This document shows, piece by piece, positions 5,489 through 61,540 of a DNA stretch of 64,000 nt (positions are counted from its first letter, which is position 1; the number at the start of each line of letters is the position of its first letter). Below the pieces are notes generated by a model that saw only the letters and a list, made by a program, of their open reading frames with translations, made no database searches and was not told the origin of the DNA. Position numbers and translations under genes: made by a program. Where the stretch lies: NCBI GenBank assembly GCA_963841755.1, contig CAWJDX010000010.1:73808-137807 (forward strand). Direction: 5' to 3'. This DNA is from an uncultured Candidatus Rokubacteria bacterium (lineage in GTDB: Bacteria; Methylomirabilota; Methylomirabilia; Rokubacteriales; CSP1-6).

Positions 5489-6268
5489 TCAGTACATCAC
5501 GAGGCCACCGGTGACGTTGATGGCCTGGCCGGTCATGTAGGACGACTTGCTCGAGGCGAGGAAGCCCACCACGTTGGCCACGTCCTCCGCCTTCTCGATG
5601 CGCCCGAGCGGGATCTGCTCGACGCGCTGCTTGAGGTACTCGCCGGGCTTGAGGCCCATGAGCCCCTCGCCCGCCTCGCGGTCCACCTGGAAGATCATGT
5701 CGGTCTCCACGATGCCGGGGCAGACGCAGTTGGCGCGGATGCCGTCGGCGGCGTGGGCCAGGGCCAGGCTCCGGGTCATGCTGATCACCGCGGCCTTGGT
5801 GATGCCGTAGACCAGCGAGGTCTTGAGCCCCATCTTCCCCGCCATCGAGGCCAGGCTGATGATGTTGCCGCGCTTGGCCTTCACCATGTGGCGCAGCACC
5901 GCCTGGCTCGCGAAGAACACGCCCTTGGCGTTGACCGCGAGCAGCCGGTCCCAGTCCGCCTCGGTCACGTCCGCGGTGTGCGCGGACTTGTGGATGCCCG
6001 CGTTGTTCACGAGGATGTCGATGCGCCCCCACTCGGCCACCGCGCGGTCGGCCATCGCCTGCAGGTCGGCCAGGCGGGTGACGTCGGTCTGGAGCGCCAT
6101 CGCCCGGCGCCCGCGCTTGCGCACCTCCTCGGCGGTGCGCTCGCCGGTGGCCCGGTCCACCTCCGCCACCACCACGTCGGCGCCCATGCCGGCCAGCTCC
6201 AGCGCGATGGCGCGGCCGATGTTGCGCCCGGCGCCGGTGACGATCGCGGTCTGCCCTTGCAGCTCCAT
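5489..6268 (-). CDS. SDR-family oxidoreductase (FabG-like)
   Basis: Intact 259 aa with TGAGRNIG Rossmann motif, NNAG, and a Y-x3-K (YGITK) catalytic motif. Confidence 0.9.
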   Translation of the reverse strand: MELQGQTAIVTGAGRNIGRAIALELAGMGADVVVAEVDRATGERTAEEVRKRGRRAMALQTDVTRLADLQAMADRAVAEWGRIDILVNNAGIHKSAHTADVTEADWDRLLAVNAKGVFFASQAVLRHMVKAKRGNIISLASMAGKMGLKTSLVYGITKAAVISMTRSLALAHAADGIRANCVCPGIVETDMIFQVDREAGEGLMGLKPGEYLKQRVEQIPLGRIEKAEDVANVVGFLASSKSSYMTGQAINVTGGLVMY

Positions 6269-7707: not shown

Positions 7708-7792
7708 GGGGTCAGGTCTTACATTCCGACATTTTTCCGGCGGTAGCCGAGACGCTCGCGTGGCAGAAATGTCGGAATGTAAGACCTGACCC

Positions 7793-7793
<1 letters not shown>
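7708..7793. repeat. REP-like palindromic element, family A (27-bp perfect inverted repeat, 32-nt spacer) at a convergent gene junction
   Basis: GGGGTCAGGTCTTACATTCCGACATTT (7708-7734) is the exact reverse complement of 7767-7793. The outer 17 bp recur at 21336-21375. Confidence 0.85.
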
Positions 7794-10371: not shown

Positions 10372-12654
10372 CAGGGACTCGCGGGGCGGCGGCGGGCGTC
10401 GCCTCGGTGGGCTTGCCGGCCCGGGCGACCGGCAGCCGCAGGGTGAACACCGCGCCGCCGCTCGGGCGGGCTCTCGGCCCGGATCTCGCCGCCGTGCTTG
10501 GTGACGATCTCGTAGCTGATCGAGAGGCCGAGCCCGGTGCCCTCGCCGACCGGCTTGGTGGTGAAGAACGGATCGAAGACGCGGCGGAGCACGTCGGGCG
10601 GGATGCCGGGGCCGGTGTCGGCGATGGCGATCACCGCCATCGGGCCCTCCCGGCGGCGTCTCGATCGTGATCGTGCCGGGCCCCGGGATCGCCTGGGCCG
10701 CGTTGGCGAGCACGTTCAGGAAGACCTGGTCGATCTGCGACCGGACGCACTCGACCGGGCCGAGCGCGCCGTACTTGCGGATCACCGTGACCCGATCCTT
10801 CAGCAGGTGGTTCAGGAGGGTCAGGCTCGACTCGAGCTCCTCGTGCAGGTCGACCGCCTGCCACACGTCGTCCGGGGTGCGGGTGAAGACCCGCAGGTCG
10901 CCGACGATCTTGCGGGTCCGGTCGGCGCCCTCGCGGATGCCGGAGATCATCGAGTCGAGGTACCGGAGCGCGTAGTCGACCTGGAGCTCCCGCCGGCGCG
11001 CGTCGATCCGGGCCCGGTCCGCCTCGGGCAGCGCGGCCTCCTGGTAGGTCTCGAGCATGGCCCGCAGGCGCTGGACGAAGTCGGCGAGCGTGGCCACGTT
11101 GGAGGAGATGAACCCGATGGGATTGTTGAGCTCGTGGGCCACGCCGGCCACGAGCTGGCCGACCGAGGCCATCTTCTCGCGCTGGATGAGCTGCAGCTGC
11201 GTGGCCTGGAGGTCGCGGTAGGCGGTCCGCAGCTCCTCGTTGGCGGCCCGGAGCTGCTCGGTGCGGACCCGCACCTTGTCCTCGAGGCTCCGGGAGAGGT
11301 CCTCGATGGTCTGGAAGCTCTGCGGCCCGGTCGATGGCGAGGGCCACGTGGCTGGCCACCGCGGTGAGCAGGTCCACGTCGCCCTGATCGAAGCGTCCCG
11401 CCTCCGTCGCGGTCACCGCGAGCACTCCGAGCACCTGCTCGCGCACGCGGAGCGGCGCCGCCACGAGGCTCCGCACCCGATGCGCGCGGCTCAGCGCCCG
11501 GTGCACCGGCTCGGTCGCCGTCTCCACGTCGTTGACGAGCACCGGCTGCCCGGTGATCGCGGCCCGCGCGCTCGCGCTGGTCGCCGCCTCGAGCGGCAGC
11601 TCGACGCCCTCGAACGGAGGCGGCGTCGGCGTCGGCGCCCGCGGCTCGGTGCCCGCGGAGCACGCGGCGCTCGCGGTCCACCAGGAGCAGGTAGGCCCGC
11701 TGGTACGGCATCCGGTGGACGAGCCGGCTCAGCGCCTGGTCGTAGATCTTCTCCGGGTCGAGCGTCCCGCTCACCGCGGCGCTCAGGTCGGTGAGGAGCG
11801 AGAGCTGCTCGATCCGCGTCTCGAGCTCGACGAACTTCTTCTCCAGCTCGCGGTTCGAGTAGATGATCTCCTCGGACTGCAGATCGAGCAGGCGCTGGGT
11901 GTGGCGGCGCTGCTGGCCCTCGCGGAGGGCGTAGCCGAGCGCGACGCCGGCGAGGAGCGGCAGCGGCGCCGCGGCCAGGAGCGGCCAGCCCCCGCCGGGG
12001 GTCGCGGCGACCAGGCCGAGGAGGACGGCGGCGCCGCCGCCGATCAGGCTCGGCGCCCAGAAGCGGACCCCCCGCGACGGGTTCTTCCAGCGGACGTCCC
12101 AGCGGCAGGCGTCGGCGACCGCGGGCCGCGCACGTGCTCTCGAGGATGCGGGCGCGCGGCAGTCCCCAGTTGGTCGGGAAGCGCTCGAACTGGACCTTGC
12201 GCCACGTGCAGCTCCAGACCGGAATGGCCTGCCCGGGCACCGGCGTCCAGCGGTAGCGGGCGTGGCGGCGGCCGACCTCGAGGACGTCGAGCCGGAAGAG
12301 GCCGCGGCTCTGCTGCTCGTAGATGGTGGCCACCCGCTGGTAGGCCGCGCGCGGGCTGCCGATGCCCATGGAGTAGGTGCCGAGATAGGAGCGCTCCTCG
12401 CGGGGCTTCCAGTCCATGAAGGACTCGCCGTAGCGCCGCGCCCAGCGGTCCTCGTCGGGCTCGTGCATCAGGTCCTGGCAGACCGCCACCATCTCGCTGG
12501 CCACCGCGAGGGGAATCCAGTTGTGGTCGGCCATGAGGTAGTCGCGCGACCGCCCCGCGACGCGGCAGATCGTCGCGACCCCCTCGGGGCCGACCTCCTT
12601 CTCCACGAAGGGGATCAGCGCCTTCGTGAAGATGCAGTTGATCTCTCCCGGCAT
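10371..12654 (-). CDS. Sensor histidine kinase (V4R-like N-terminal domain, 2 TM helices, coiled coil, GAF, HisKA, HATPase_c), at least 5 apparent frameshifts
   Basis: Pieces lie in at least 5 frames. They are: [22 protein letters not shown]…[10 protein letters not shown] / …[10 protein letters not shown] (V4R-type E-x2-C-x3-G-x3-C-x-W end); [15 protein letters not shown]…[11 protein letters not shown] (TM); GAF …[12 protein letters not shown]…LGVLAVT…; HisKA …[19 protein letters not shown]…; HATPase …IADTGPGIP…[16 protein letters not shown]…. Confidence 0.75.
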
Positions 12655-20268: not shown

Positions 20269-21330
20269 ATGGCACCCGAGCAGGCGACGCTGGATCCAAA
20301 CAAAGTGAACGAGTTTCTTGGCAAGGCGATCTCGGATGTGGCGGCCACGTTCCACGCAGGCCTCGTGCTCATCGGCGACAAGCTCGGTCTGTACCGGGCG
20401 ATGGCCGGCGCCGGCCCGCTGAGCCCGGCGGACCTGGCCAAGCGCACCGGCACCCGCGAGCGCTACGTGCGCGAGTGGCTGTCCGCGCAAGCCGCGGGCG
20501 GCTACGTCACCTACGAGCCGGCGACCGGCCGCTTCACGCTGCCGCCGGAGCAGGCGTTCCTGATGCTCGACGCGGACTTGCCGGGGGCGTTCCAGCTCAG
20601 CGTCGGCTCGGTGCGCGACGAGCCGCGGATCTCGGACGCGTTCCGGACCGGCGCCGGCGTGGGCTGGCACGAGCACGACACCGGAGTGTACGAGGGCTGC
20701 GAGCGGTTCTTCCGCCCCGGCTACGCCATGAATCTCGTCAGCCAGTGGATCCCCGCGCTCGAGGGGGTGAAGGCGCGGCTCGAGGTGGGCGGCCGGGTCG
20801 CCGACGTGGGCTGCGGCCACGGCGCGTCCAGCATCATCATGGCGCAGGCGTTCCCCCGCACGACCGTCACCGGCTTCGACTACCATCCCGCGTCCATCCA
20901 GGCCGCGCGGCAGGCGGCCGACAAGGCCGGGGTGGGGGACCGGCTGTCGTTCGAGGTGACCGCGGCCAGGGACTACCCGGGCAGCGGCTACGACCTGGTC
21001 ACCTTCTTCGACTGCCTGCACGACATGGGCGATCCGGTGGGCGCCGCGCGCCAGGTGCGGCAGTCGCTCGCCCCGGGCGGGGTCTGGATGCTGGTGGAGC
21101 CCTTCGCCAACGACCGGCTGGAGGACAATCTCAACCCGGTCGGCCGTCTCTACTACGCGGCGTCGACCCTGCTCTGCACGCCCGCGTCGCTCAGCCAGGA
21201 GGTGGGGCTCGCGCTCGGCGCGCAGGCGGGGGAGAAGCGGCTCCGTGAGGTGCTGACCGAGGCGGGATTCACGCGGATCCGGCGGGTGGCCCAGACCCCC
21301 GCGAACATGGTCTTCGAAGTCCGCGTGTAG
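20269..21330 (+). CDS. Class I SAM-dependent methyltransferase with N-terminal winged-helix-like dimerisation region
   Basis: VADVGCGHGAS (motif I) and DLVTFFDCLHDM. GGAAGGAG lies upstream of the ATG at 20269. Confidence 0.85.
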   Translation: MAPEQATLDPNKVNEFLGKAISDVAATFHAGLVLIGDKLGLYRAMAGAGPLSPADLAKRTGTRERYVREWLSAQAAGGYVTYEPATGRFTLPPEQAFLMLDADLPGAFQLSVGSVRDEPRISDAFRTGAGVGWHEHDTGVYEGCERFFRPGYAMNLVSQWIPALEGVKARLEVGGRVADVGCGHGASSIIMAQAFPRTTVTGFDYHPASIQAARQAADKAGVGDRLSFEVTAARDYPGSGYDLVTFFDCLHDMGDPVGAARQVRQSLAPGGVWMLVEPFANDRLEDNLNPVGRLYYAASTLLCTPASLSQEVGLALGAQAGEKRLREVLTEAGFTRIRRVAQTPANMVFEVRV

Positions 21331-21335
21331 CAGAA

Positions 21336-21375
21336 GGGGTCAGGTCTTACATGTTGGAATGTAAGACCTGACCCC
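21336..21375. repeat. REP-like palindromic element, family A, short form (17-bp stem, 6-nt loop) at a convergent gene junction
   Basis: GGGGTCAGGTCTTACAT gttgga ATGTAAGACCTGACCCC. The arms are identical to the outer arms of 7708-7793. Confidence 0.8.
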
Positions 21376-21380
21376 GTCAG

Positions 21381-22523
21381 TTACTTGATCAGGCCGTAGA
21401 AGCGGCCCGCGTTCTCGCAGGTCATCTTGTGCATGACCTCGGCGGGCAGGTGGCCGAACTGCTCGGCGATGTACTTGGAGGAATCGGGCCAGACGCCGTC
21501 GCCGTGCGGGTAGTCGGAGCCCCACATCAGTGTCTCGACACCCATGTCGTCGATCAGCTTGGTGCCGATGCGGTCGAACTGGAAGGTCGCCTTGCACTGC
21601 CGCCGCCAGTAGTCGCTCGGCTTCATCTTGAGCCCGAGGTCGGTGAAGCGGTCCTCCCACTCGAAGTCCATGCGGTCGAGCGCGTAGGGCACCCAGCCGA
21701 TGCCGGATTCGCCGAAGGCGATGCGCACGTTCGGATAGCGCTCGAGCACCGCGGCCCCGATGATCGCGGCCAGGATGTTGACCAGGTTCATCTGAAACGC
21801 GGAGACCACCGTGAAGAACGCGGCGCGCCGGGTGAGCCCCTTCTGCTTCTCCAGCACGTTGGGCGGCAGGGCCGGGAAGGTGTGGAAGTGGAGCGGCAGG
21901 TTGACGTCGTTGACCGCCTTCCACAGCGGCTCCCACGTCGGATGCCACATCGGCTCCATGTCCCACGAGCAGGAGAGCTCCATGCCACGCAGGCCGAGCT
22001 TGGCCACCCGGTAGACCTCCTGCACCGCGGCGTCGATGTCGCCGTAGGGCAAGCACGCGAGGCCGATGAAGCGGTCCGGGTCGTGGCGGCAGAAGTCCAC
22101 CAGCCAGTCGTTATAGATGTGGAACATCTCGGTGGCCGCCTCGTGGTCGTTCAGCCGGGTGGCCGCGCCGAGGATGCCGTAGATGACCTCGGCCTGCACG
22201 CCGTCGCGGTCCATGTCCTTGGCCCGCAGCGCCGGAGTGGTCGGCCGGGCGACCCCCTTCTTGCCATCGTCGTAGAGACCGGTCGCCGCCATCACGTCCA
22301 CGCGGTGGTGCTTGCCGGCCTCGTACTTGGAGCCGGCCGGCCCCACGCCGCCCCACAGGCCGAAGCTGGTCCCGTTCTTCGCTGTCCAGTAGGGCCCGTC
22401 GGGCCCATCCTTGACGTAGGGCATGCGGTCCTTCAGTGGTGCCGACGCGTTGGCGGTGAACAGATCGGGCGGGATCCAGGGCAGGTCGATGTGGCAGTCG
22501 GCGGAGATCCGTTGGTAGCGCAT
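21381..22523 (-). CDS. Amidohydrolase-2 family protein (PF04909/ACMSD-like metal-dependent hydrolase/decarboxylase)
   Basis: Start chosen at MRYQRISADCHIDL (aa 19 of ORF 21381..22577). Motifs: …SADCHID…, …LHFHTF…, …MWGSDYPHGDG…. Confidence 0.85.
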   Translation of the reverse strand: MRYQRISADCHIDLPWIPPDLFTANASAPLKDRMPYVKDGPDGPYWTAKNGTSFGLWGGVGPAGSKYEAGKHHRVDVMAATGLYDDGKKGVARPTTPALRAKDMDRDGVQAEVIYGILGAATRLNDHEAATEMFHIYNDWLVDFCRHDPDRFIGLACLPYGDIDAAVQEVYRVAKLGLRGMELSCSWDMEPMWHPTWEPLWKAVNDVNLPLHFHTFPALPPNVLEKQKGLTRRAAFFTVVSAFQMNLVNILAAIIGAAVLERYPNVRIAFGESGIGWVPYALDRMDFEWEDRFTDLGLKMKPSDYWRRQCKATFQFDRIGTKLIDDMGVETLMWGSDYPHGDGVWPDSSKYIAEQFGHLPAEVMHKMTCENAGRFYGLIK

Positions 22524-31123: not shown

Positions 31124-32002
31124 TTACATGCCGCCGTTGGCGGCGAAGTTGCGGATGATCCAGCCCGCGATGGAGTGCCGCGCGGGGCCGACCGGCATCG
31201 CGTCGCTCGGGAACCAGCGCGCGTCCTCCAGCTCCTCGCGGTCGATGGTGATCTCGCCGCCCGCGTAGCTCGCCACGAAGCCGATCATGATCTGGCTCGG
31301 GAACGGCCAGTTCTGGCTCCCCACGTACTGGATGTCCTTGACGTCGACGCCGACTTCCTCCTTCACCTCGCGCGCCACGCAGCCCTCGAGCGACTCGCCG
31401 TTGTCGACGAAGCCGGCCACCAGCGCGTAGCGGCCCGGGGCCCAGATCGCCTTGCGCGCGAGCAGCACCCGGTTGCCGTCGCGCACCAGCACGATGACCG
31501 CGGGGTGCAGGTGCGGGTAGTGCTCGTAGCGGCAGCCGCCGCAGCGCTTGCCCCACTCGCCCTCGAGCCGGCCGGTGGGCGCGCCGCAGCGCGGGCAGTG
31601 CCCGCTGGTCGATTCCCAGTACAGGAGCTGCATGGCCATGCCGCCCACCGTGAGCAGATCGTCGGGCAGCCGCGTGCCCTGCATCGGCACGAGCGTCTCC
31701 GCCGCGAGCCCCTCGGGCACCGGCGCGTCCTTCGGGCGCGCGGCCACCCAGCACGGCGCGCCGCCCCACGTGCCGAGCCAGTGCCGCGGGCCCAGCCCGT
31801 CGAGCCCGCGCGGCGGGGCCTCCGGGCTCTCGCCCGCGGGCAGGCGGAAGCCGTCGCCCTCCGGCACCACGAGGAGCTTCTGATCCTGGACCACGAGCCA
31901 CCGTCCGACTCCGGCGGGCGGCCCGCCGCCCCGCTTGGCGGGCTCGAACTCGCCACGCAGGCAGTCCATGTTGAAGGGCAGGTAGACGGACAGCGGCGTC
32001 AT
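31124..32002 (-). CDS. nudC: NADH pyrophosphatase (NUDIX hydrolase with Zn ribbon)
   Basis: Start at MTPLSVYLPF (aa 96 of ORF 31124..32287). Contains CPRCGAPT…CGGC zinc ribbon, NUDIX box GFVDNGESLEGCVAREVKEEVGV, and SQNWPFPSQ (the NudC-type SQPWPFP-like motif). Confidence 0.8.
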   Translation of the reverse strand: MTPLSVYLPFNMDCLRGEFEPAKRGGGPPAGVGRWLVVQDQKLLVVPEGDGFRLPAGESPEAPPRGLDGLGPRHWLGTWGGAPCWVAARPKDAPVPEGLAAETLVPMQGTRLPDDLLTVGGMAMQLLYWESTSGHCPRCGAPTGRLEGEWGKRCGGCRYEHYPHLHPAVIVLVRDGNRVLLARKAIWAPGRYALVAGFVDNGESLEGCVAREVKEEVGVDVKDIQYVGSQNWPFPSQIMIGFVASYAGGEITIDREELEDARWFPSDAMPVGPARHSIAGWIIRNFAANGGM

Positions 32003-52920: not shown

Positions 52921-53654
52921 GCGGCCTGCCGCGACCGGTGGCCGATCTGTGCACGGCCCTCGGTAGTCAGCGCGGCGTCCTCGCGGTGGCGCTCGGCGGC
53001 TCCCGCGCCTCGGGGCGCGCGGACGCGGCGAGCGACTGGGATCTGGGTCTCTACTACCGGGGAGAGATCGATCTCACGGTGCTGGCCCGCCACGGCGAGG
53101 TGCATCCGCCCGGCTCATGGGGACGCCTCATGAACGGCGGGGCGTGGCTCACCGTCGACGGGCTGAAGGTCGACGTGATGCTGCGCGATCTCGACGTGGT
53201 CGGGCACTGGAGCGCGGAGGCGGAGCAAGGACGCTACGAGGTCGACGCGCTGCTGGGCTACGTGGCGGGCGCGCCGACGTACGGCTTGATGGCGGAGCTG
53301 GCGGTGAGCCGGGCTCTGGCGGGAACCCTGCCCGAGGTCTCCGCCTACCCCGCCGCGCTCGCCGAGGCCGGCGCGCGCCGCTGGCGCGTCCACGCCGAGT
53401 TCAGCCTGGAGCACGCGCGCATGCGAGCCGAGCGCGGGGACGTGACCGGCGCGGTGGGTCAAGCCGCCAAGGCGGTGCTCGAGACTGCGCACGCTCGCGC
53501 CTGTCGCGAGCGCGTCTGGGTGCTCAACGAGAAGACGCTCGTGGAGCGAGCGGGACTGGCCGCGCTGCACGAGCGGTTCACCCGCACCCCGGCGGGGCCG
53601 GCCGCGCTGGTCGAGTGGGTGGGCGGGCTCCGCCGCGCGCTGGACGTCGTCTAG
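52917..53654 (+). CDS. Nucleotidyltransferase-domain protein (pol-beta-fold NTase with helical C-terminal domain)
   Basis: Intact 245 aa with LGGSRASGRADAASDWDLGLYY (G-S…D-x-D NTase motif). ATGA overlap with the upstream stop. Confidence 0.7.
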   Translation: MSGLPRPVADLCTALGSQRGVLAVALGGSRASGRADAASDWDLGLYYRGEIDLTVLARHGEVHPPGSWGRLMNGGAWLTVDGLKVDVMLRDLDVVGHWSAEAEQGRYEVDALLGYVAGAPTYGLMAELAVSRALAGTLPEVSAYPAALAEAGARRWRVHAEFSLEHARMRAERGDVTGAVGQAAKAVLETAHARACRERVWVLNEKTLVERAGLAALHERFTRTPAGPAALVEWVGGLRRALDVV

Positions 53655-53662
53655 GGGCCCGC

Positions 53663-54688
53663 GTGTCGGCGATCTCGGTGGAGCACCTGAGCCGCTGGTG
53701 GGGCACGACCCGCGCGGTCGACGACGTGAGCTTCGAGGCGGCGGCGGGGCGGATGCTGGTGCTGCTCGGCCCGTCCGGCTGCGGCAAGTCCACCACGCTG
53801 CGGCTCATCGCGGGGCTCGAGGCGGCCACCGCGGGGCGCGTCGCCATCGGCGGCGTCGACGTCACCCACCGGCCGCCCGCCGAGCGGCGCGTGTCCATGG
53901 TCTTCCAGTCCTACGCGCTCTTCCCGCACCTCTCGGTCGCGGAGAACATCGTGTTCGGCCTCCGGGTGCGTCGCGTGAGCGCCGCCGAGCGCAGAGAGCG
54001 GCTCGCCCGCGTGGCCGACCTGCTGGGGCTGACCGCGCTGCTGGAGCGCCGGCCCTCGCAGCTCTCCGGCGGTCAGCAGCAGCGGGTGGCCCTCGGTCGC
54101 GCGCTGATCGCGGAGGCGCCGGTGTGCCTGATGGACGAGCCGCTCTCCAACCTGGACGCCCAGCTCCGGCTCGAGATGCGCCGGGAGATTCGCGGCCTCC
54201 AGCAGAGCCTCGGCATCACCATGGTCTACGTCACCCACGACCAGACCGAGGCGATGACCATGGCCGATCAGGTCATCCTGCTGCGCGAGGGCCGCGTGGA
54301 GCAGGACGCGCCGCCCGAGACGCTCTACGCGCGCCCGGCCACCGCCTTCGCGGCGCGCTTCATCGGCACCCCGCCCATGAACGTGCTCGCCCTCGACGAT
54401 CGGCGGCGGCTATTGGGAATACGGCCGGAGGACATCCGGGTCGTGGGAGCGAAGGAGCCCGGCGCGGTGGAGGCCCTGGTGCGGAGCATCGAGTATCTCG
54501 GCGCCGACTCCATCCTGATGTGCGCGATCGGCCGTCAGGCGCTCGCGGTGCGCGCCCCCGGCCGCGTCGCCCTCGCTCCCGGCGCGCCCGTGTCTCTCGC
54601 GTGGGCGCGGGACGCGGCCCACGTGTTCGACGCCGAGACCGGTCGCCGTCGCGACGACGTCGCGGTCGACTCACCCATCTCTCGATGA
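53663..54688 (+). CDS. ABC transporter ATP-binding protein (MalK/UgpC-like, sugar type)
   Basis: GTG start. Walker A GPSGCGKST, signature LSGGQQQRV, Walker B LMDEPLSNLD, and a C-terminal TOBE-like regulatory domain. Confidence 0.9.
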   Translation: MSAISVEHLSRWWGTTRAVDDVSFEAAAGRMLVLLGPSGCGKSTTLRLIAGLEAATAGRVAIGGVDVTHRPPAERRVSMVFQSYALFPHLSVAENIVFGLRVRRVSAAERRERLARVADLLGLTALLERRPSQLSGGQQQRVALGRALIAEAPVCLMDEPLSNLDAQLRLEMRREIRGLQQSLGITMVYVTHDQTEAMTMADQVILLREGRVEQDAPPETLYARPATAFAARFIGTPPMNVLALDDRRRLLGIRPEDIRVVGAKEPGAVEALVRSIEYLGADSILMCAIGRQALAVRAPGRVALAPGAPVSLAWARDAAHVFDAETGRRRDDVAVDSPISR

Positions 54689-54702: not shown

Positions 54703-55992
54703 ATGATCAGGACACTGCTCGCAGCCCTGCTGCTCGTCGCCCTCACCGGCGGCGCCTCGCCGGTGATCGCCCAGGCCCCGGTGGAGCTCTCCTTCTATTA
54801 CCCGGTGGCGGTCGGAGGCCCGGTGACGAAGATCATCGACGGCCTCGCGGCGGACTTCCAGAAGGAGAACCCCGGCATCCACGTCAAGCCGATCTACGCC
54901 GGCACCTACCAGGAGACGATCGTCAAGGTGCTCACCGCGCTCAAGAGCGGCGAGCCGCCCCAGATGTCGGTGCTGCTCTCGACCGACATGTTCACCCTGA
55001 TCGACGAGGACGCGATCGTCCCCTTCGACGACCTCGCCACCGGCGCGGAGGACCGGAGCTGGCTCAAGAGCTTCTTCCCCGCCTTCATGCTCAACAGCCA
55101 GACCGGGGGCAAGACCTGGGGCGTGCCGTTCCAGCGCTCCACCATCGTGCTGTACTGGAACAAGGAGGCCTTCAAGGAGGCCGGCCTCGACCCGAACAAG
55201 CCGCCCGCCACCTGGGCCGAGCAGGTCGAGTACGCGCGCAAGCTCACCAAGCGCGACGGCAGCGGCAACGTCACCCAGTGGGGGATCGAGGTGCCGTCCT
55301 CCGGCTTCCCGTACTGGCTCTTCCAGGGCTTCACCACCCAGAACGACGTGCTCCTGATGAACCAGGCCGGCAACGAAACCTACTACGACAAGCCGGCGGT
55401 GGTGGAGGCGCTCCAGTACTGGATGGACCTGAGCGGAAAGCACAAGGTCATGCCCACCGGCATCATCGAATGGGGCACGACCCCGAAGGACTTCTTCGAG
55501 CGCAAGACCGCCATGATGTGGACCACCACCGGCAACCTGACCAACGTGAAGAACAACGCCAAGTTCGAGTTCGGGGTGGCCATGCTGCCGGCGGGCAAGC
55601 GGCGCGGCTCGCCGACCGGCGGCGGCAACTTCCACGTCTTCAAGAAGAGCACGCCGGCCCAGCAGGCCGCCTCGCTCAAGTTCATCAAGTGGATCACGTC
55701 GCCCCAGCGCGCCGCGCAGTGGGGCATCGACACCGGCTACGTCGCGGTGCGCCCGGACGCGTGGGAGACGCCGGCCATGAAGCAGTATGTCGCCGGCTTC
55801 CCGGCCGCCGCGGTGGCGCGCGATCAGCTGCAGTACGCGGTCGCGGAGCTGTCCACGCACGACAACCAGCGGGTGACCAAGGCGCTCAACGATGGGCTGC
55901 AGGCGGCGCTGACCGGGGCGAAGCCTGCCGACCAGGCGATGAAGGACGCGCAGCGGGAGGCGGAGCGCATCCTGCGGCCTTACCGTCGCTGA
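54703..55992 (+). CDS. ABC transporter substrate-binding protein, family 1 (sugar/glycerol-phosphate type)
   Basis: MIRTLLAALLLVALTGGASPVIAQA signal with AGGAGA upstream. An alternative ATG at 54685 overlaps the ATPase stop. Confidence 0.9.
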   Translation: MIRTLLAALLLVALTGGASPVIAQAPVELSFYYPVAVGGPVTKIIDGLAADFQKENPGIHVKPIYAGTYQETIVKVLTALKSGEPPQMSVLLSTDMFTLIDEDAIVPFDDLATGAEDRSWLKSFFPAFMLNSQTGGKTWGVPFQRSTIVLYWNKEAFKEAGLDPNKPPATWAEQVEYARKLTKRDGSGNVTQWGIEVPSSGFPYWLFQGFTTQNDVLLMNQAGNETYYDKPAVVEALQYWMDLSGKHKVMPTGIIEWGTTPKDFFERKTAMMWTTTGNLTNVKNNAKFEFGVAMLPAGKRRGSPTGGGNFHVFKKSTPAQQAASLKFIKWITSPQRAAQWGIDTGYVAVRPDAWETPAMKQYVAGFPAAAVARDQLQYAVAELSTHDNQRVTKALNDGLQAALTGAKPADQAMKDAQREAERILRPYRR

Positions 55993-56009
55993 TGATGCTT
56001 GGCCTGGGT

Positions 56010-56184
56010 GTGCGGCGGGCGGGGCCGGCGGCGGGGGGGCGGGGCTCCCGGGAACACGCTGACTCGCGGTGCCTTGCCTGCACTCATGACGGGCCACGAG
56101 ATGTTGGTCTGGCGCTTCGGCAACGCGCAGAAGACACGGTTCCCGGGAGCCCCGCCCCCCCGCCGCCGGCCCCGCCCGCCGCAC
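56010..56184. repeat. 175-bp element: perfect 46-bp GC-rich inverted repeat flanking an 83-nt lower-GC spacer (MITE-like or intercistronic super-hairpin)
   Basis: 56010-56055 (GTGCGGCGGGCGGGGCCGGCGGCGGGGGGGCGGGGCTCCCGGGAAC) is the exact reverse complement of 56139-56184. It lies between the SBP and permease genes of one operon. Confidence 0.9.
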
Positions 56185-56232
56185 TGGGGTTGGAATGAGC
56201 GACTCGAGCAGCATTGAGCGACCTAAGCCGCG

Positions 56233-57138
56233 ATGCTTCCCACTCAGGCTGGCTCCGCGACTCCGCGTCAGTGGCGGGTGCACGTGCAGGGGTGGCTGCT
56301 CTTGTTGCCGGCGGCGGTGCTGCTGGTGACGTTCACGCACTACCCGGTGGCGGCGACGCTGTATCACAGCTTCTTCTCGAACCCGAAGCCGAGGCGGGCG
56401 GCGGTGTGGGTGGGGGCGGATAACTACCGGGCGATGGTGGAGGATCCGGTGTTCTGGCAGGTGGTGGGGAACAACGTGTGGTTCGCGGTGGGGACGATTC
56501 CGGTGTCGATCGCGCTGGCGCTGCTGATGGCGATCTGGGTGAACGGGCGCATCAGGGGGCGCTCGCTGCTGCGGCTGGCCTTCTTCACCCCGACCGTGCT
56601 GCCGATGATCGCGGTGGCCAACATCTGGCTCTTCTTCTACACGCCGGGCTACGGCCTGCTCGAGCAGATCACCGGCCTCCTCGGTCTGCCGAGCCACAAC
56701 TGGCTCGGGAGTCGGGAGACCGCGCTCGGCTGCCTGGTGGTGGTGACGGTCTGGAAGGAGGCGGGCTTCTTCATGATCTTCTACCTGGCCGCGCTCCAGT
56801 CGCTCTCGCCCCAGCTGGGCGAGGCGGCGGCCCTGATGGGCGCCGGGCCCTGGTACTTCTTCCGCCGCGTGACGTTTCCGCTCCTGATGCCCACGACGCT
56901 CTTCGTGCTGGTGAACGCGGTGATCAACTCGTTCCGGCTGGTGGACCACATCGTGGTGATGACCAAGGGCGGCCCCGACAACACCACCGCGCTGCTGCTC
57001 TACTACATCTACGACGTGGGCTTCAAGTTCTGGGACCAGGCCTACGCGGCGGCCCTCACCCTGGTCCTGCTCGTGATCCTGGCCGCGGTGGCCCTGGGGC
57101 AGTTCCTGCTGCTGGACCGGCGGGTGCACTATCAATGA
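56233..57138 (+). CDS. ABC transporter permease (MalF/UgpA-like)
   Basis: Intact 301 aa with 6 TM-like segments and EAA-type loop …EAAALMGAGPWYFFRRVTFPLL…. Confidence 0.9.
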   Translation: MLPTQAGSATPRQWRVHVQGWLLLLPAAVLLVTFTHYPVAATLYHSFFSNPKPRRAAVWVGADNYRAMVEDPVFWQVVGNNVWFAVGTIPVSIALALLMAIWVNGRIRGRSLLRLAFFTPTVLPMIAVANIWLFFYTPGYGLLEQITGLLGLPSHNWLGSRETALGCLVVVTVWKEAGFFMIFYLAALQSLSPQLGEAAALMGAGPWYFFRRVTFPLLMPTTLFVLVNAVINSFRLVDHIVVMTKGGPDNTTALLLYYIYDVGFKFWDQAYAAALTLVLLVILAAVALGQFLLLDRRVHYQ

Positions 57139-57935
57139 CCCGCGCGCTCGAGACGGCGGGCGCCTGGCTGCTCGGGGTGCTCTGGGCGCTGCCGCTGGCC
57201 TACGCGGTGTGGACCGCCTTCCACCCGGCCGAGTTCTCGACGCGCTTCGTCCCGGGCGCGCCGCTCACCCTCGAGAACTTCGCGAAGGCGTGGGCGGCCG
57301 CGCCCTTCGCCCGCTACTTCGTCAACACCACGCTGCTGGTGGCCATGATCCTGGCCGTCCAGCTCGTGCTCTGCACGCTCGCGGCCTACGCCTTCGCGCG
57401 CTTCGCGTTCGCGGGGCGCGCGGTCGCGTTCCTGCTGGTGCTGGTGCAGCTCATGATCATGCCGGACGTGCTGATCGTGGAGAACTACCGGACCATGAGC
57501 CGGCTCGGCATCCTCGACACGCTCTGGGCCATCGGCCTGCCCTACATGGCCTCCGCGTTCGGCATCTTCCTCCTGCGCCAGACCTTCAAGACGGTGCCGA
57601 AGGAGCTGGACGAGGCGGCGCGGGTGGAAGGCGCGGGACCGCTCGAGACGCTCTGGCGCGTCTACGTGCCGCTGGCGCGGCCGGTCTACATCGCCTACGG
57701 GCTGGTCTCGGTGAGCTACCACTGGAACAACTTCCTGTGGCCGCTGATCGTCACGAACTCGGTGCAGTCGCGGCCGCTCACCGTGGGGCTACAGGTGTTC
57801 TCCTCGGTCGATCAGGGGGTGGACTGGTCGATCATCACCGCGGCGACCTTGATGACCTCGGGCCCGCTGCTGGTGGCGTTCCTGCTCTTCCAGCGCCAGT
57901 TCGTGCAGAGCTTCATGCGCGCCGGCATCCGCTGA
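57135..57935 (+). CDS. ABC transporter permease (MalG/UgpE-like)
   Basis: The ATG overlaps the upstream TGA. Contains …ELDEAARVEGAGPLETLWRVYVPLARP…. Confidence 0.9.
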   Translation: MTRALETAGAWLLGVLWALPLAYAVWTAFHPAEFSTRFVPGAPLTLENFAKAWAAAPFARYFVNTTLLVAMILAVQLVLCTLAAYAFARFAFAGRAVAFLLVLVQLMIMPDVLIVENYRTMSRLGILDTLWAIGLPYMASAFGIFLLRQTFKTVPKELDEAARVEGAGPLETLWRVYVPLARPVYIAYGLVSVSYHWNNFLWPLIVTNSVQSRPLTVGLQVFSSVDQGVDWSIITAATLMTSGPLLVAFLLFQRQFVQSFMRAGIR

Positions 57936-60422: not shown

Positions 60423-61041
60423 ATCGGTTGACACCATCTCGCACCGGCGCCTCCGCGTCGATGCCGGGCCCGGCGCTCGCGTCCGTCATCGGGGCCGTGA
60501 TCGTCGCGCTGGTGGTGAGCGGGTGCGCCAGCGTCCCGACCGGGCCGAGCGTGATGGTCATGCCGGGCACCGGCAAGAGCTTCGAGACCTTCCAGGTCGA
60601 CGACGCGGTATGCCGCCAGTGGGCGGCGCAGCAGACCGGTACCACGACCAACAAGGCCGCCACCGAGAGCACGGTGGGGGGCGCCGCGATCGGCACGCTG
60701 GTGGGCGCGGCGGCGGGCGCGGCGCTCGGGGCCGCCGCGGGCAATCCGGCCATCGGCGCCGCCGCGGGTGCCGGCGTGGGACTCCTCGGCGGTACCGCGA
60801 TCGGAGCGAGCCGTGCCGACGCGTACGGCGGCTCGGTCCAGCGTCGTTACGACATGTCGTACACGCAGTGCATGTACGCCAAGGGCAACCAGGTCCCGAT
60901 GGCGCGCGGCTCGCGGGTCCAGCCGCCGGCCTATAGCGCGTCGCCGCCGCCCCCCCGCCTCCTCCGCCGCCCGCCGCGGTGGCGCCCAGCACGCCGCCGC
61001 CTCCGCCGGGCCCGCCGCCTCCTCCGCCGCCGACCCGGTAG
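60419..61041 (+). CDS. Glycine-zipper lipoprotein with poly-Pro tail, frameshift in a C7 run (60950-60956)
   Basis: GTGA overlap with the upstream stop (alternative ATG at 60461). Lipobox LVVSGC, Gly-zipper …GGAAIGTLVGAAAGAALGAAAGNPAIGAAAGAGVGLLGG…, and …YTQCMYAKGN…. After the shift the tail is PPPPPPAAVAPSTPPPPPGPPPPPPPTR* (TAG 61039-61041). Confidence 0.6.
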
Positions 61042-61147
61042 ATTCGCCGACGAGCTGATCGCTCGTCAGATCCAGACCGCTCAGCTCGCGCACGTCACCT
61101 CTCCGTCGAGCGACGCGCGTCCACCCTGTCCCGGCGCTACGGCCGGG

Positions 61148-61540
61148 CTACGGCCGCCGCGGCGGAGGGGGCGGCGGGACCACCGTCGTGCCCGCGGGCA
61201 CCCAGACCCAGTAGTACGGCGACGCCGTGGTGCCCTCTCCGTAGAGCTGATAGCGGCCGTCCGTCGTCGCGCTCGCGATACGGGCCGGCGGCGGAGGCGG
61301 CGGAGTCGGAGTGGTCCCGGCCGGCACCCAGACCCAGTAGTACGGCGAGGCGGTGGTGCCGCTGCCGTAGAGCTGGTAGCGGCCGCCCGGATAGTCGACG
61401 GTCGAGTTCGGCGCGCCGAGCACCGCGCCGGTGGTCGGCGGGTACGTGGGGTCCTGCACCGCGGTGCAGCCGCCGAGCAGGGCCACCGCGAGCGACGCGG
61501 GCACGACGAGACGCGTGGAGCGCTGGATCGCACGATTCAT
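61148..61540 (-). CDS. Lipoprotein with two tandem copies of a GRYQLYG-GTTASPYYWVWVPAGTT-PPPPPP module
   Basis: Intact 130 aa: MNRAIQRSTRLVVPASLAVALLGGC lipobox. GGGAGG lies upstream of the ATG. Confidence 0.65.
   Translation of the reverse strand: MNRAIQRSTRLVVPASLAVALLGGCTAVQDPTYPPTTGAVLGAPNSTVDYPGGRYQLYGSGTTASPYYWVWVPAGTTPTPPPPPPARIASATTDGRYQLYGEGTTASPYYWVWVPAGTTVVPPPPPPRRP

Follow-up and report, generated by a model that had tools for sequence, protein, structure and literature searches.

A previously undescribed family of extragenic palindromes with a conserved, strand-specific core in Rokubacteria, represented by a copy between the binding-protein and permease genes of an ABC transporter operon

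Introduction

Repetitive extragenic palindromic (REP) hairpins and bacterial interspersed mosaic elements (BIMEs) sit in the malE-malF and hisJ-hisQ intergenic regions of E. coli and Salmonella, and were first noticed between genes for binding proteins and genes for membrane components. Enterobacteria also contain large imperfect palindromes located in transcription units, the enterobacterial repetitive intergenic consensus sequences or intergenic repeat units (ERIC/IRU), and ERIC has been reported to influence mRNA stability in an orientation-dependent way. The mycobacterial interspersed repetitive units (MIRUs) are orientation-specific intercistronic repeats that are non-palindromic and carry small open reading frames (ORFs). 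Long duplexes are also known from the RNase III stems that flank rRNAs, where the sequence of the duplex is free and the pairing is kept around a conserved RNA, and from the attC sites of integrons, which carry outer R''/R' sites (RYYYAAC ... GTTRRRY) and form co-directional cassette arrays. Here, we describe a palindromic element located at positions 56010-56184 of a 64,000-nucleotide stretch of contig CAWJDX010000010.1 from an uncultured Candidatus Rokubacteria bacterium (hereafter, the window), between the solute-binding protein (SBP) and permease genes of an ABC transporter operon, and the family of elements to which it belongs.

REPs are 20-40 bp long, with stems of 5-13 bp, loops of 2-20 nt and a GTAG or CGTC tag; they lie mostly between convergent or unidirectional ORFs near 3' ends and are associated with genes of REP-associated tyrosine transposases (RAYTs), of the IS200/IS605 type (PMC3733652). 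The Rokubacteria element resembles REPs as an intercistronic palindrome located exactly between a binding-protein gene and a membrane-component gene, and its family shares with them the occurrence of paired inverted units, the convergent or co-directional placement near 3' ends (PMC3733652), and the presumed protection of the upstream mRNA and differential expression. It differs from REPs in the length of the stem (30-47 bp in the family, 46 bp in the window), in the loop (83 nt in the window, ~85 nt in the family), which is the conserved part, in the termini (TGCCGGCAA...), which lack a GTAG or CGTC tag, and in the low copy number. Correia repeat enclosed elements (CREEs), found in Neisseria only, have a size of 100-200 bp, end in a fixed 26-bp repeat, duplicate their target and number 120-250 copies; they are often located 5' of genes, generate promoters, carry an integration host factor (IHF) site, are hot spots of rearrangement, and form co-transcribed hairpins that are bound or cut by RNase III, altering the fate of the mRNA (PMC2649163). 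The similarity to CREEs consists in the size, the rearrangement hot spot, the presumed co-transcribed hairpin, here a predicted duplex, and, as an analogy of architecture only, the inverted repeat around a characteristic directional core, whereas the arms of the present family vary between copies, no duplication is seen, the copies lie 3' of genes in the sense orientation, and both the sequence and the phylum (Rokubacteria/Methylomirabilota metagenome-assembled genomes, MAGs) are unrelated.

With miniature inverted-repeat transposable elements (MITEs) and REPINs, the family has in common that its members are small, non-coding and dispersed, carry long inverted repeats capable of forming hairpins, and fall into subfamilies with founder signatures (PMC3184786; PMC3733652). 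It departs from these elements in several ways: neither target-site duplications nor clean empty sites nor a cognate transposase have been found for it, conservation is higher in the interior than at the termini, purifying selection acts on the resident copy, and the orientation relative to genes is strict. The family resembles ERIC (a large imperfect palindrome) and MIRUs (an orientation-specific intercistronic repeat) in its location inside transcription units; the sequences are unrelated, the arms of ERIC are conserved in sequence and MIRUs are non-palindromic. As in the rRNA processing stems, a long duplex of free but paired sequence surrounds a conserved segment; however, the present elements are multi-copy, follow assorted protein-coding genes, and have a core that is at best a candidate for a stable functional RNA. 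Identification with attC sites was considered, since these too are inverted repeats of conserved structure and variable sequence with a bulged base at gene 3' ends, and rejected, given that the GGAAC/GTTCC motifs are at the inner rather than the outer ends of the stem and that the elements form → ← pairs between convergent genes, not cassette arrays.

Results

Retrieval, size and hosts of the family

Two conserved loop motifs of the spacer between the palindrome arms were used as a search pattern, which retrieved 113 stretches from metagenomes, the spacing being 45 nt in nearly all of them; six of the 113 are chance matches with no other feature of the family. From GTDB genomes the pattern retrieved 20 stretches, most of them in MAGs of Candidatus Rokubacteria / Rokuibacteriota / Methylomirabilota, several of which hold 2-3 exact-pattern copies each. 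A covariance model (R1), built from 70 distinct copies (alignment A1), yielded 108 + 43 = 151 matches in about 1 Mb of fetched DNA. The clustering of flanks placed the copies at no fewer than 37 independent loci, with functionally unrelated neighbouring genes. An earlier reading of the window from its letters and ORFs (the sequence-only reading) had seen a single copy there and proposed a search beyond it: the pattern and covariance-model searches together found ~150 related copies, and within the window R1 scores 122 bits at the palindrome, with the runner-up, at 15 bits (E = 0.17), not being a member.

These ~190-220-bp extragenic elements of Rokubacteria/Methylomirabilota constitute a previously undescribed family; a literature search gave no paper that describes it, nor any on repeats or non-coding RNAs of Rokubacteria. 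The family is phylum-restricted. A few matches come from high-GC contigs of MAGs named Nitrosotalea, Verrucomicrobiia, Dormibacterota and Actinobacteria, but some of these contigs are identical to the Rokubacteria-type SBP locus, and the matches are therefore taken to be probable binning errors; three GTDB records (L143, L149, L136) contain the Rokubacteria-type locus filed under Verrucomicrobiia and Nitrosotalea MAGs, likely through errors of binning or naming. The pattern search found no match in viral contigs (IMG/VR), and PLSDB plasmids, searched by BLAST with the element as query, gave none either.

The conserved core

The stretch between the arms, described in the sequence-only reading as a spacer of lower GC content, does have a lower GC fraction (0.64, compared with 0.91 in the arms and 0.72 in the window), but it is a strand-specific, sequence-conserved core rather than filler, which that reading overlooked. 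This asymmetric apical core of ~85 nt comprises three near-invariant blocks, B1, B2 and B3, with the family consensus CACRCTGAnnnGC, CAcTCnnnAnnGGCCACGAGA and CTTCGGCAACGCGCAGAAGAYAYGG, separated by two hypervariable segments, Y and W (Table 1). Block B1 is kept also in 13 distinct copies that were not fetched by the search pattern, and in these pattern-independent copies GCCACGAGA is kept in 13/13 and CAGAAG in 12/13. One related copy (L041) has arms identical to those of the window despite its differences in W. At the base of the core, the helix resumes past the bulged A56056 with the pairs C56057-G56138 and G56058-C56137. In alignment A1 (columns 21-23, 110-111), one of these pairs is C-G in 70/70 copies and the other is G-C in 60 and A-U in 10, and mutual-information analysis of the pairs at the bulged A agrees with this pattern.

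Beyond this point, little conserved structure was detected. RNAalifold, applied to both strands, recovers just the closing stem, the 3-bp CGC/GCG helix and the UUCG mini-hairpin, and in an alignment-free partner-swap test the core segments show no own-partner pairing (all p > 0.2), with Y pairing without preference for the W, X and Z segments of its own copy or for its own flanks. A CUCG/CGAG hairpin around an ACGGGCC loop is found in many copies, but was rejected because roughly one copy in six has lost its left half. A guide role of Y and W toward their own flanks was likewise discarded, with no excess complementarity within +/-1.5 kb.

Position and orientation relative to genes

Copies lie just past stop codons, mostly in the sense orientation relative to the gene that ends there, with divergent promoter regions being avoided. 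Among the gene contexts, 15 are convergent, 12 tandem (co-directional) and only one is divergent (p = 7e-4 against 1:2:1). In the symmetric test, performed on non-redundant contexts, 19 cases had a gene end within 170 nt on the 5' side of the element only and 3 on the 3' side only (p = 9e-4), while 9 had one on each side. Adjacent pairs of copies are arranged → ← in 19/19 cases, plus four more, representing ~6-9 independent loci; the members of a pair have different arms and thus are not recent inverted duplicates, and the arrangement implies that each gene of a convergent gap has its own sense-oriented copy. The genes that precede copies encode luciferase-like monooxygenases, response regulators, ClpB, YceG, kinases and SBPs. 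Given this diversity, the family is not specific to ABC operons and a link to ABC transporters or SBPs was dropped; the co-directional, intra-operon placement of the window copy is a minority context.

The resident copy at orthologous loci

Independent assemblies from JGI, ENA and NCBI (L001-4, L006, L025, L041, L141, L143) have the element at the SBP-permease junction, and contigs from several JGI and ENA samples with 93-94%-identical SBPs carry it at the same place. Compared with the window, substitutions in the arms are paired (GTGC/GCAC to GCGC/GCGC; GGGGC/GCCCC to GAGCC/GGCTC), and in one orthologue (L001) five left-arm substitutions are answered by four in the right arm, leaving one G.U pair and zero mismatches. 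The sequence-only reading had warned that the palindrome might be an assembly fold-back artefact or that the arms might be part of a conserved coding sequence. The former is excluded by complete copies in many independent assemblies with lineage-specific compensatory differences, and the latter by the paired substitutions, the indels of non-triplet length among orthologues and the lack of a Pfam match.

The window copy is common to orthologous operons that diverge by 0.07-0.31 at 4-fold degenerate sites; it is old and vertically inherited, not a recent insertion. For the comparison with L001, which was found through its protein and hence independently of the core pattern, 76/305 (0.25) of the 4-fold sites of the flanking genes differ, compared with 2/59 positions in the core blocks (p = 5e-5 versus 4-fold sites) and 9/92 in the arms, all answered in the opposite arm (p = 0.001), whereas Y and W together differ at 13/26 positions (p = 0.01). 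With L006, the blocks differ at 7/59 positions and the 4-fold sites at 95/310 (p = 0.002). The blocks and arms thus evolve more slowly than 4-fold sites, which indicates purifying selection on the core blocks and on the pairing of the resident copy. Y and W evolve faster than synonymous sites, and this hypervariability could simply mean that they are under no constraint. In a near-identical relative, the counts are 5/26 for Y and W and 22/324 for 4-fold sites.

Seven of the 12 contigs that carry close orthologues of the SBP (L005, L007-L012) end inside the element, 22-173 nt past the SBP stop codon; the hairpin thus fragments short-read assemblies, and copies will be under-counted in MAGs. In L005 (3247-3355, orthologous to window 56010-56331), the left arm is fused to approximately codon 25 of the permease gene at an 11-mer, GCCGGCGGCGG, that occurs twice in the window (56028-56038 and 56307-56317), and the core, right arm and permease start are gone; this junction could be a shortcut taken by the assembler or a genuine deletion at the microhomology. 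A 6-kb contig (L126) has one and the same family copy at its two ends in inverted orientation (367-486, + strand; 5607-5725, - strand), with near-identical flanks and small indels, and may itself be a fold-back assembly artefact.

The closing stem

Across the family, the closing stem is typically 30-47 bp long, GC-rich and often perfect (46/46 in the window and L041, 47/47 in L116, 35/35 in L062 and L137). In alignment A1, 95.1% of the stem cells are paired, compared with 30-52% after sliding the partners, and 18/20 modelled stem pairs show compensatory or double changes, one covarying pair being GC in 28 copies, AU in 16, CG in 11 and UA in 9. The middle of the arms varies freely, and partial conservation is seen only at the GGAAC-like inner ends and in the outer TGCCGGCAAWGCG / CGGGCGGGG. 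Complete copies additionally possess imperfect outer inverted termini, (CG)TGCCGGCAAWGCGGCGGG ... CCCGCCGCWTTGCCGGCA(CG), beginning 2-24 nt past a stop codon. Subfamilies share arm sequences, including one C.A mismatch (CCGCGGACC/GGTCCACGG), at many loci, from which it follows that copies do spread as DNA. Arm complementarity is probably maintained at the DNA level as well, through arm-to-arm conversion.

The palindrome in the window

In the window, the two arms are exact reverse complements over 46/46 positions and flank an 83-nt spacer; all coordinates and features given for them in the sequence-only reading stand, including the motifs CTCCCGGGAAC / GTTCCCGGGAG in both arms and the placement between the SBP and permease genes. 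The SBP stop codon (55992) is separated from the left arm by 17 nt, and the right arm from the permease ATG (56233) by 48 nt. For a window of the same composition, the chance expectation of a perfect 46-nt inverted repeat with a separation of up to 400 nt is at most 1e-13. The predicted RNA fold of 55990-56235 has an energy of -175.7 kcal/mol, compared with -121.8 +/- 4.7 for shuffled sequences (z = -11.4). The window copy retains only degenerate remnants of the outer inverted termini, its stem flanks reading ...CCTGGGT/GTGCGG and CCGCAC/TGGGG; the 55993-56009 stretch is probably a degenerate outer terminus, with weak homology. The features of the locus are listed in Table 1.

Table 1. Features of the palindromic element and its host operon (window coordinates)
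Feature	Coordinates	Strand	Remarks
ABC transporter ATPase, operon gene 1	53651..54688	+	PF00005 2.2e-34, PF08402 1.2e-13 (ABC_tran + TOBE_2); start codon approximate
SBP, UgpB-like / CUT1 type	54703..55992	+	PF13416 4.4e-43, PF01547 1.7e-32
Stop-to-stem spacer	55993..56009	+	Read from sequence; complete family copies have (CG)TGCCGGCAAWGCG here
Left arm of closing stem	56010..56055	+	46 nt, 91% GC, 100% complementary to 56139-56184
Core block B1	56055..56067	+	CACGCTGACTCGC; CACRCTGA and final GC near-invariant (alignment A1)
Bulged A	56056	+	Conserved in family; followed by two more base pairs
Hypervariable segment Y	56068..56080	+	13 nt; 7/13 differ from L001
Core block B2	56081..56101	+	CACTCATGACGGGCCACGAGA; GCCACGAGA invariant; 0/21 differ from L001
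Hypervariable segment W	56102..56114	+	13 nt; 6/13 differ from L001, 4/13 from L041
Core block B3	56115..56139	+	CTTCGGCAACGCGCAGAAGACACGG; GC-UUCG-GC mini-hairpin and invariant CAGAAG; 1/25 differs from L001
Right arm of closing stem	56139..56184	+	46 nt; exact reverse complement of 56010-56055
Stem-to-permease spacer	56185..56232	+	48 nt; no T-run and no sigma70-like promoter (sequence and promoter/terminator scan)
ABC permease 1 (BPD_transp_1)	56233..57138	+	PF00528 1.3e-16
ABC permease 2	57135..57935	+	PF00528 4.1e-14; start overlaps permease 1 stop (ATGA), read from sequence

The element was also compared with known classes of signals and RNAs. A promoter/terminator scan of the locus gave no consensus promoter and no terminator-like site at the element, Rfam 15 searched at a permissive E-value returned merely generic matches to miRNA-precursor hairpins (23-45 bits against thresholds of 90-168), and ARAGORN found no tRNA or tmRNA likeness in the element. 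A coding function was rejected, as ORFs spanning the element lack a Pfam match and spacer lengths vary by non-multiples of three. Sigma70 and ECF promoters and K-turn, loop-E, hammerhead and hairpin-ribozyme motifs were considered by eye and discarded because of misfits in spacing or invariant positions.

Three other sets of inverted repeats were noted in the window. At 7708-7793 and 21327-21384, GGGGTCAGGTCTTACAT occurs four times as two inverted pairs (0.03 expected by chance); this repeat is unrelated to the palindrome, is poorer in GC than the DNA around it, and resembles a REP-type family belonging to this genome. Imperfect GC-rich inverted repeats at 61008-61181 (34 nt, 79% complementarity, 106-nt spacer) and 31800-31947 (35 nt, 74%, 78-nt spacer) do not match the family model.

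The host operon

The operon encodes, in this order, an ATPase, the SBP and two permeases, and the ATPase-SBP-permease gene order is repeated at orthologous loci. The SBP-permease gap is the sole expanded junction, the remaining ones being tight or overlapping. The SBP start codon (ATG at 54703) is preceded by a GAGGAG Shine-Dalgarno sequence. The exact look-up of the window's own proteins gave no record; homologues of the SBP, with identity of up to 96%, come from soil metagenomes and carry the JGI name of sn-glycerol-3-phosphate SBP. One SBP cluster (P0002) carries the name Candidatus Udaeobacter, likely a binning or naming error.

In related operons that lack the element (81-90% SBP identity), the same junction holds other hairpins or nothing. 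An 86%-identical orthologue (L014, 4303-4411) has an unrelated 38-bp perfect hairpin (CCCCCTCACCCGGCCCTCTCCCCCTCCGGGGGCGAGGG..., z = -10.6), which is probably a member of another repeat family, L013 has a long imperfect hairpin (z = -2.6), L015-18 have a 17-bp hairpin, and L019-22 have a 13-nt gap and no hairpin.

Mobility and rearrangement

Target-site duplications and empty sites, which the sequence-only reading had listed among the checks to be made on the element, were not found. No consistent direct repeats flank the family copies: the window flanks contain merely a weak TGGGT/TGGGG pair, and the stem ends of L006 hold nothing comparable. A flank-to-flank search over all loci gave no clean empty site, the differences in presence and absence reflecting just block inversion and recombination deletion. 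Comparison of L067/L137 with L153/L057/L120 shows an inversion of the complete block that separates the same two convergent genes; this block holds the element, a tail hairpin and a palindromic element designated X, and its inversion places the family element beside, and sense to, the other gene. In L077/L117, one hybrid copy is found where L038 has a → ← pair, which is explained by arm-arm recombination. Element X lies next to family copies and is ~300 bp long (L067 ~12250-12560; L153 ~560-880, reverse; also L050 and L137), and its termini, GGGCGGAGCTGGGGGTGCCCGGCGGCGGGTAGCCGTCG ..., resemble the outer arm of one family subtype.

The search of about 1 Mb of fetched DNA detected no transposase partner with the same termini, and 52/66 matches to the termini are attached to family copies. 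RAYT genes were not found among the 32 neighbouring genes scanned, which was not a systematic RAYT search.

Discussion

The interpretation that we favour, with a confidence only slightly above that of an even choice, is that the element is REP/Correia-like and works at the level of the transcript, where its hairpin would be a barrier at the 3' end or a processing site and uncouple SBP expression from that of the permease. Under this scenario, the element would be transcribed together with the upstream cistron, at its end, and form a very stable stem in the RNA, which could serve as a barrier to 3'-to-5' exonucleases, as a processing site of the RNase III type, and/or as a factor-assisted partial terminator. 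In this operon, the SBP message would be protected and the permease message lowered or detached, resulting in a high SBP:permease ratio, for which the REP hairpins in malE-malF and hisJ-hisQ offer a parallel. The strand-specific, conserved core would imply an additional, sequence-specific partner, such as a protein or an RNase, or else a role for a released loop RNA. An intercistronic stabiliser or attenuator was one of the two possibilities put forward in the sequence-only reading, and it appears the better functional guess for this junction, considering that the other junctions of the operon are tight, that unrelated hairpins occur at the same junction, and that the family is located at gene 3' ends; by itself, however, it is insufficient, and it stays conjectural.

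Several observations weigh against this interpretation. It is solely the position and orientation of the copies that suggest action at the RNA level. The core has no conserved fold beyond the 3-bp helix and the UUCG mini-hairpin, so that a fold does not account for its conservation. No U-tract follows position 56184, and the right flanks of the family also lack T-runs, so the element is not a canonical intrinsic (Rho-independent) terminator. Mismatches in the stems include 95 G.U and 124 A.C, with no excess of G.U; complementarity is thus kept without regard to RNA wobble, which fits homogenisation at the DNA level or a need for a perfect duplex, and an attempt to derive the strand of action from wobble pairs was abandoned, these counts giving no signal. 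The analysis has weaknesses of its own: a plain count of same and opposite orientations is confounded by the geometry of convergent gaps, and symmetric tests were used instead; gene calls at the related loci come from a crude GC3-based caller; and the family was ascertained via its core pattern, a bias only partly controlled by the protein-found L001 and the 13 pattern-independent copies.

Among the rival explanations, the most serious, although in our judgement an unlikely one, is that the element is selfish, that is, a non-autonomous MITE- or REPIN-like element that inserted ancestrally and has no host function, with arms that are terminal inverted repeats kept by hairpin-templated conversion and with positional biases that reflect insertion preference or the purging of harmful insertions. 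A MITE-like insertion was the other possibility raised in the sequence-only reading, and the part of it that stands is the existence of a dispersed, multi-copy family with long inverted repeats. Dispersal over at least 37 loci with unrelated neighbours, the common arms with their C.A mismatch, a founder signature of DNA copying, the conserved outer termini (TGCCGGCAAWGCG ... CWTTGCCGGCA), the similar terminal sequence of element X (GGGCGGAGCTGGGGGT), the colonisation of the same SBP-permease junction by other repeat families, and the lack of asymmetry between G.U and A.C in the stems all point in this direction. The part that does not fit is the behaviour of the copies: there is neither a target-site duplication nor a clean empty site, the arms vary while the interior is conserved, and the window copy is old and under purifying selection, which, for the core blocks at the orthologous site (2/59 versus 76/305), is not predicted by selection for mobility. 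Furthermore, every pair is arranged → ← and the sense orientation prevails 19:3 among single copies, no transposase partner was found in about 1 Mb and no copy in viral contigs or plasmids, and copies seem to be few (2-3 with the exact pattern per MAG, one in the 64-kb window).

The long, mostly perfect duplexes around core blocks that are largely unpaired would also suit an rRNA-like processing stem, from which a double-strand-specific RNase would excise the core out of the 3' untranslated region (UTR) as a trans-acting, multi-copy small RNA, with the invariant blocks as a scaffold or protein-binding part and the hypervariable segments providing copy-specific specificity. The sense orientation behind genes, with no own promoter found, and the evolution of Y and W faster than synonymous sites are in line with such a role; nevertheless, we consider this candidate role improbable, as Y and W are no more complementary to their own +/-1.5-kb flanks than expected, Rfam has no family that resembles the element, and hypervariability could be mere lack of constraint. 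Still less probable is a DNA-level cruciform or protein-binding site for recombination, inversion or the ends of transcription units, with the RNA hairpin being incidental. The inversion of the intergenic block between related genomes, the recombination between arms of neighbouring copies, the strand symmetry of stem mismatch types and the frequent breaks of contigs at the element would agree with this possibility, but the orientation of the core tracks the adjacent gene, which is not required of a symmetric DNA structure, the elements are tight to stop codons (2-24 nt), and a recombination hot spot inside an operon would be hazardous. As for an assembly artefact or arms belonging to a conserved coding sequence, extreme GC palindromes do disturb assemblers, as seen in the 7/12 orthologous contigs that end inside the element and in the shortcut junction of L005, yet with complete copies in independent assemblies and projects bearing lineage-specific compensatory differences, and with no Pfam match for the spanning ORFs in addition to the paired substitutions and non-triplet indels, the probability of this explanation is close to nil.

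To our reading of the data, this is the first family of extragenic repeats or non-coding elements described for the uncultured, large-genome soil Rokubacteria, and its covariance model and anatomy are now available. A practical implication is that hairpins of this kind break short-read assemblies, fragmenting MAGs and lowering copy counts. The design with a hairpin between the genes for a binding protein and a permease recurs here far outside the phylum of its classic examples, and several palindromes of unrelated sequence have been recruited to one junction. What sets the family apart from most bacterial palindromic repeats is that the loop, not the arms, is conserved and strand-specific, and that resident copies are under purifying selection; the element, rather than being junk, is therefore a good candidate for a real post-transcriptional signal or for an RNA gene. 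A more far-reaching and rather doubtful possibility is a new class of RNA genes borne by 3' UTRs, in which a processing stem of free sequence would deliver an RNA of ~85 nt with protein-binding blocks and 'guide-like' 13-nt segments; if so, the operon palindrome would host a trans-acting RNA and not merely form a local hairpin.

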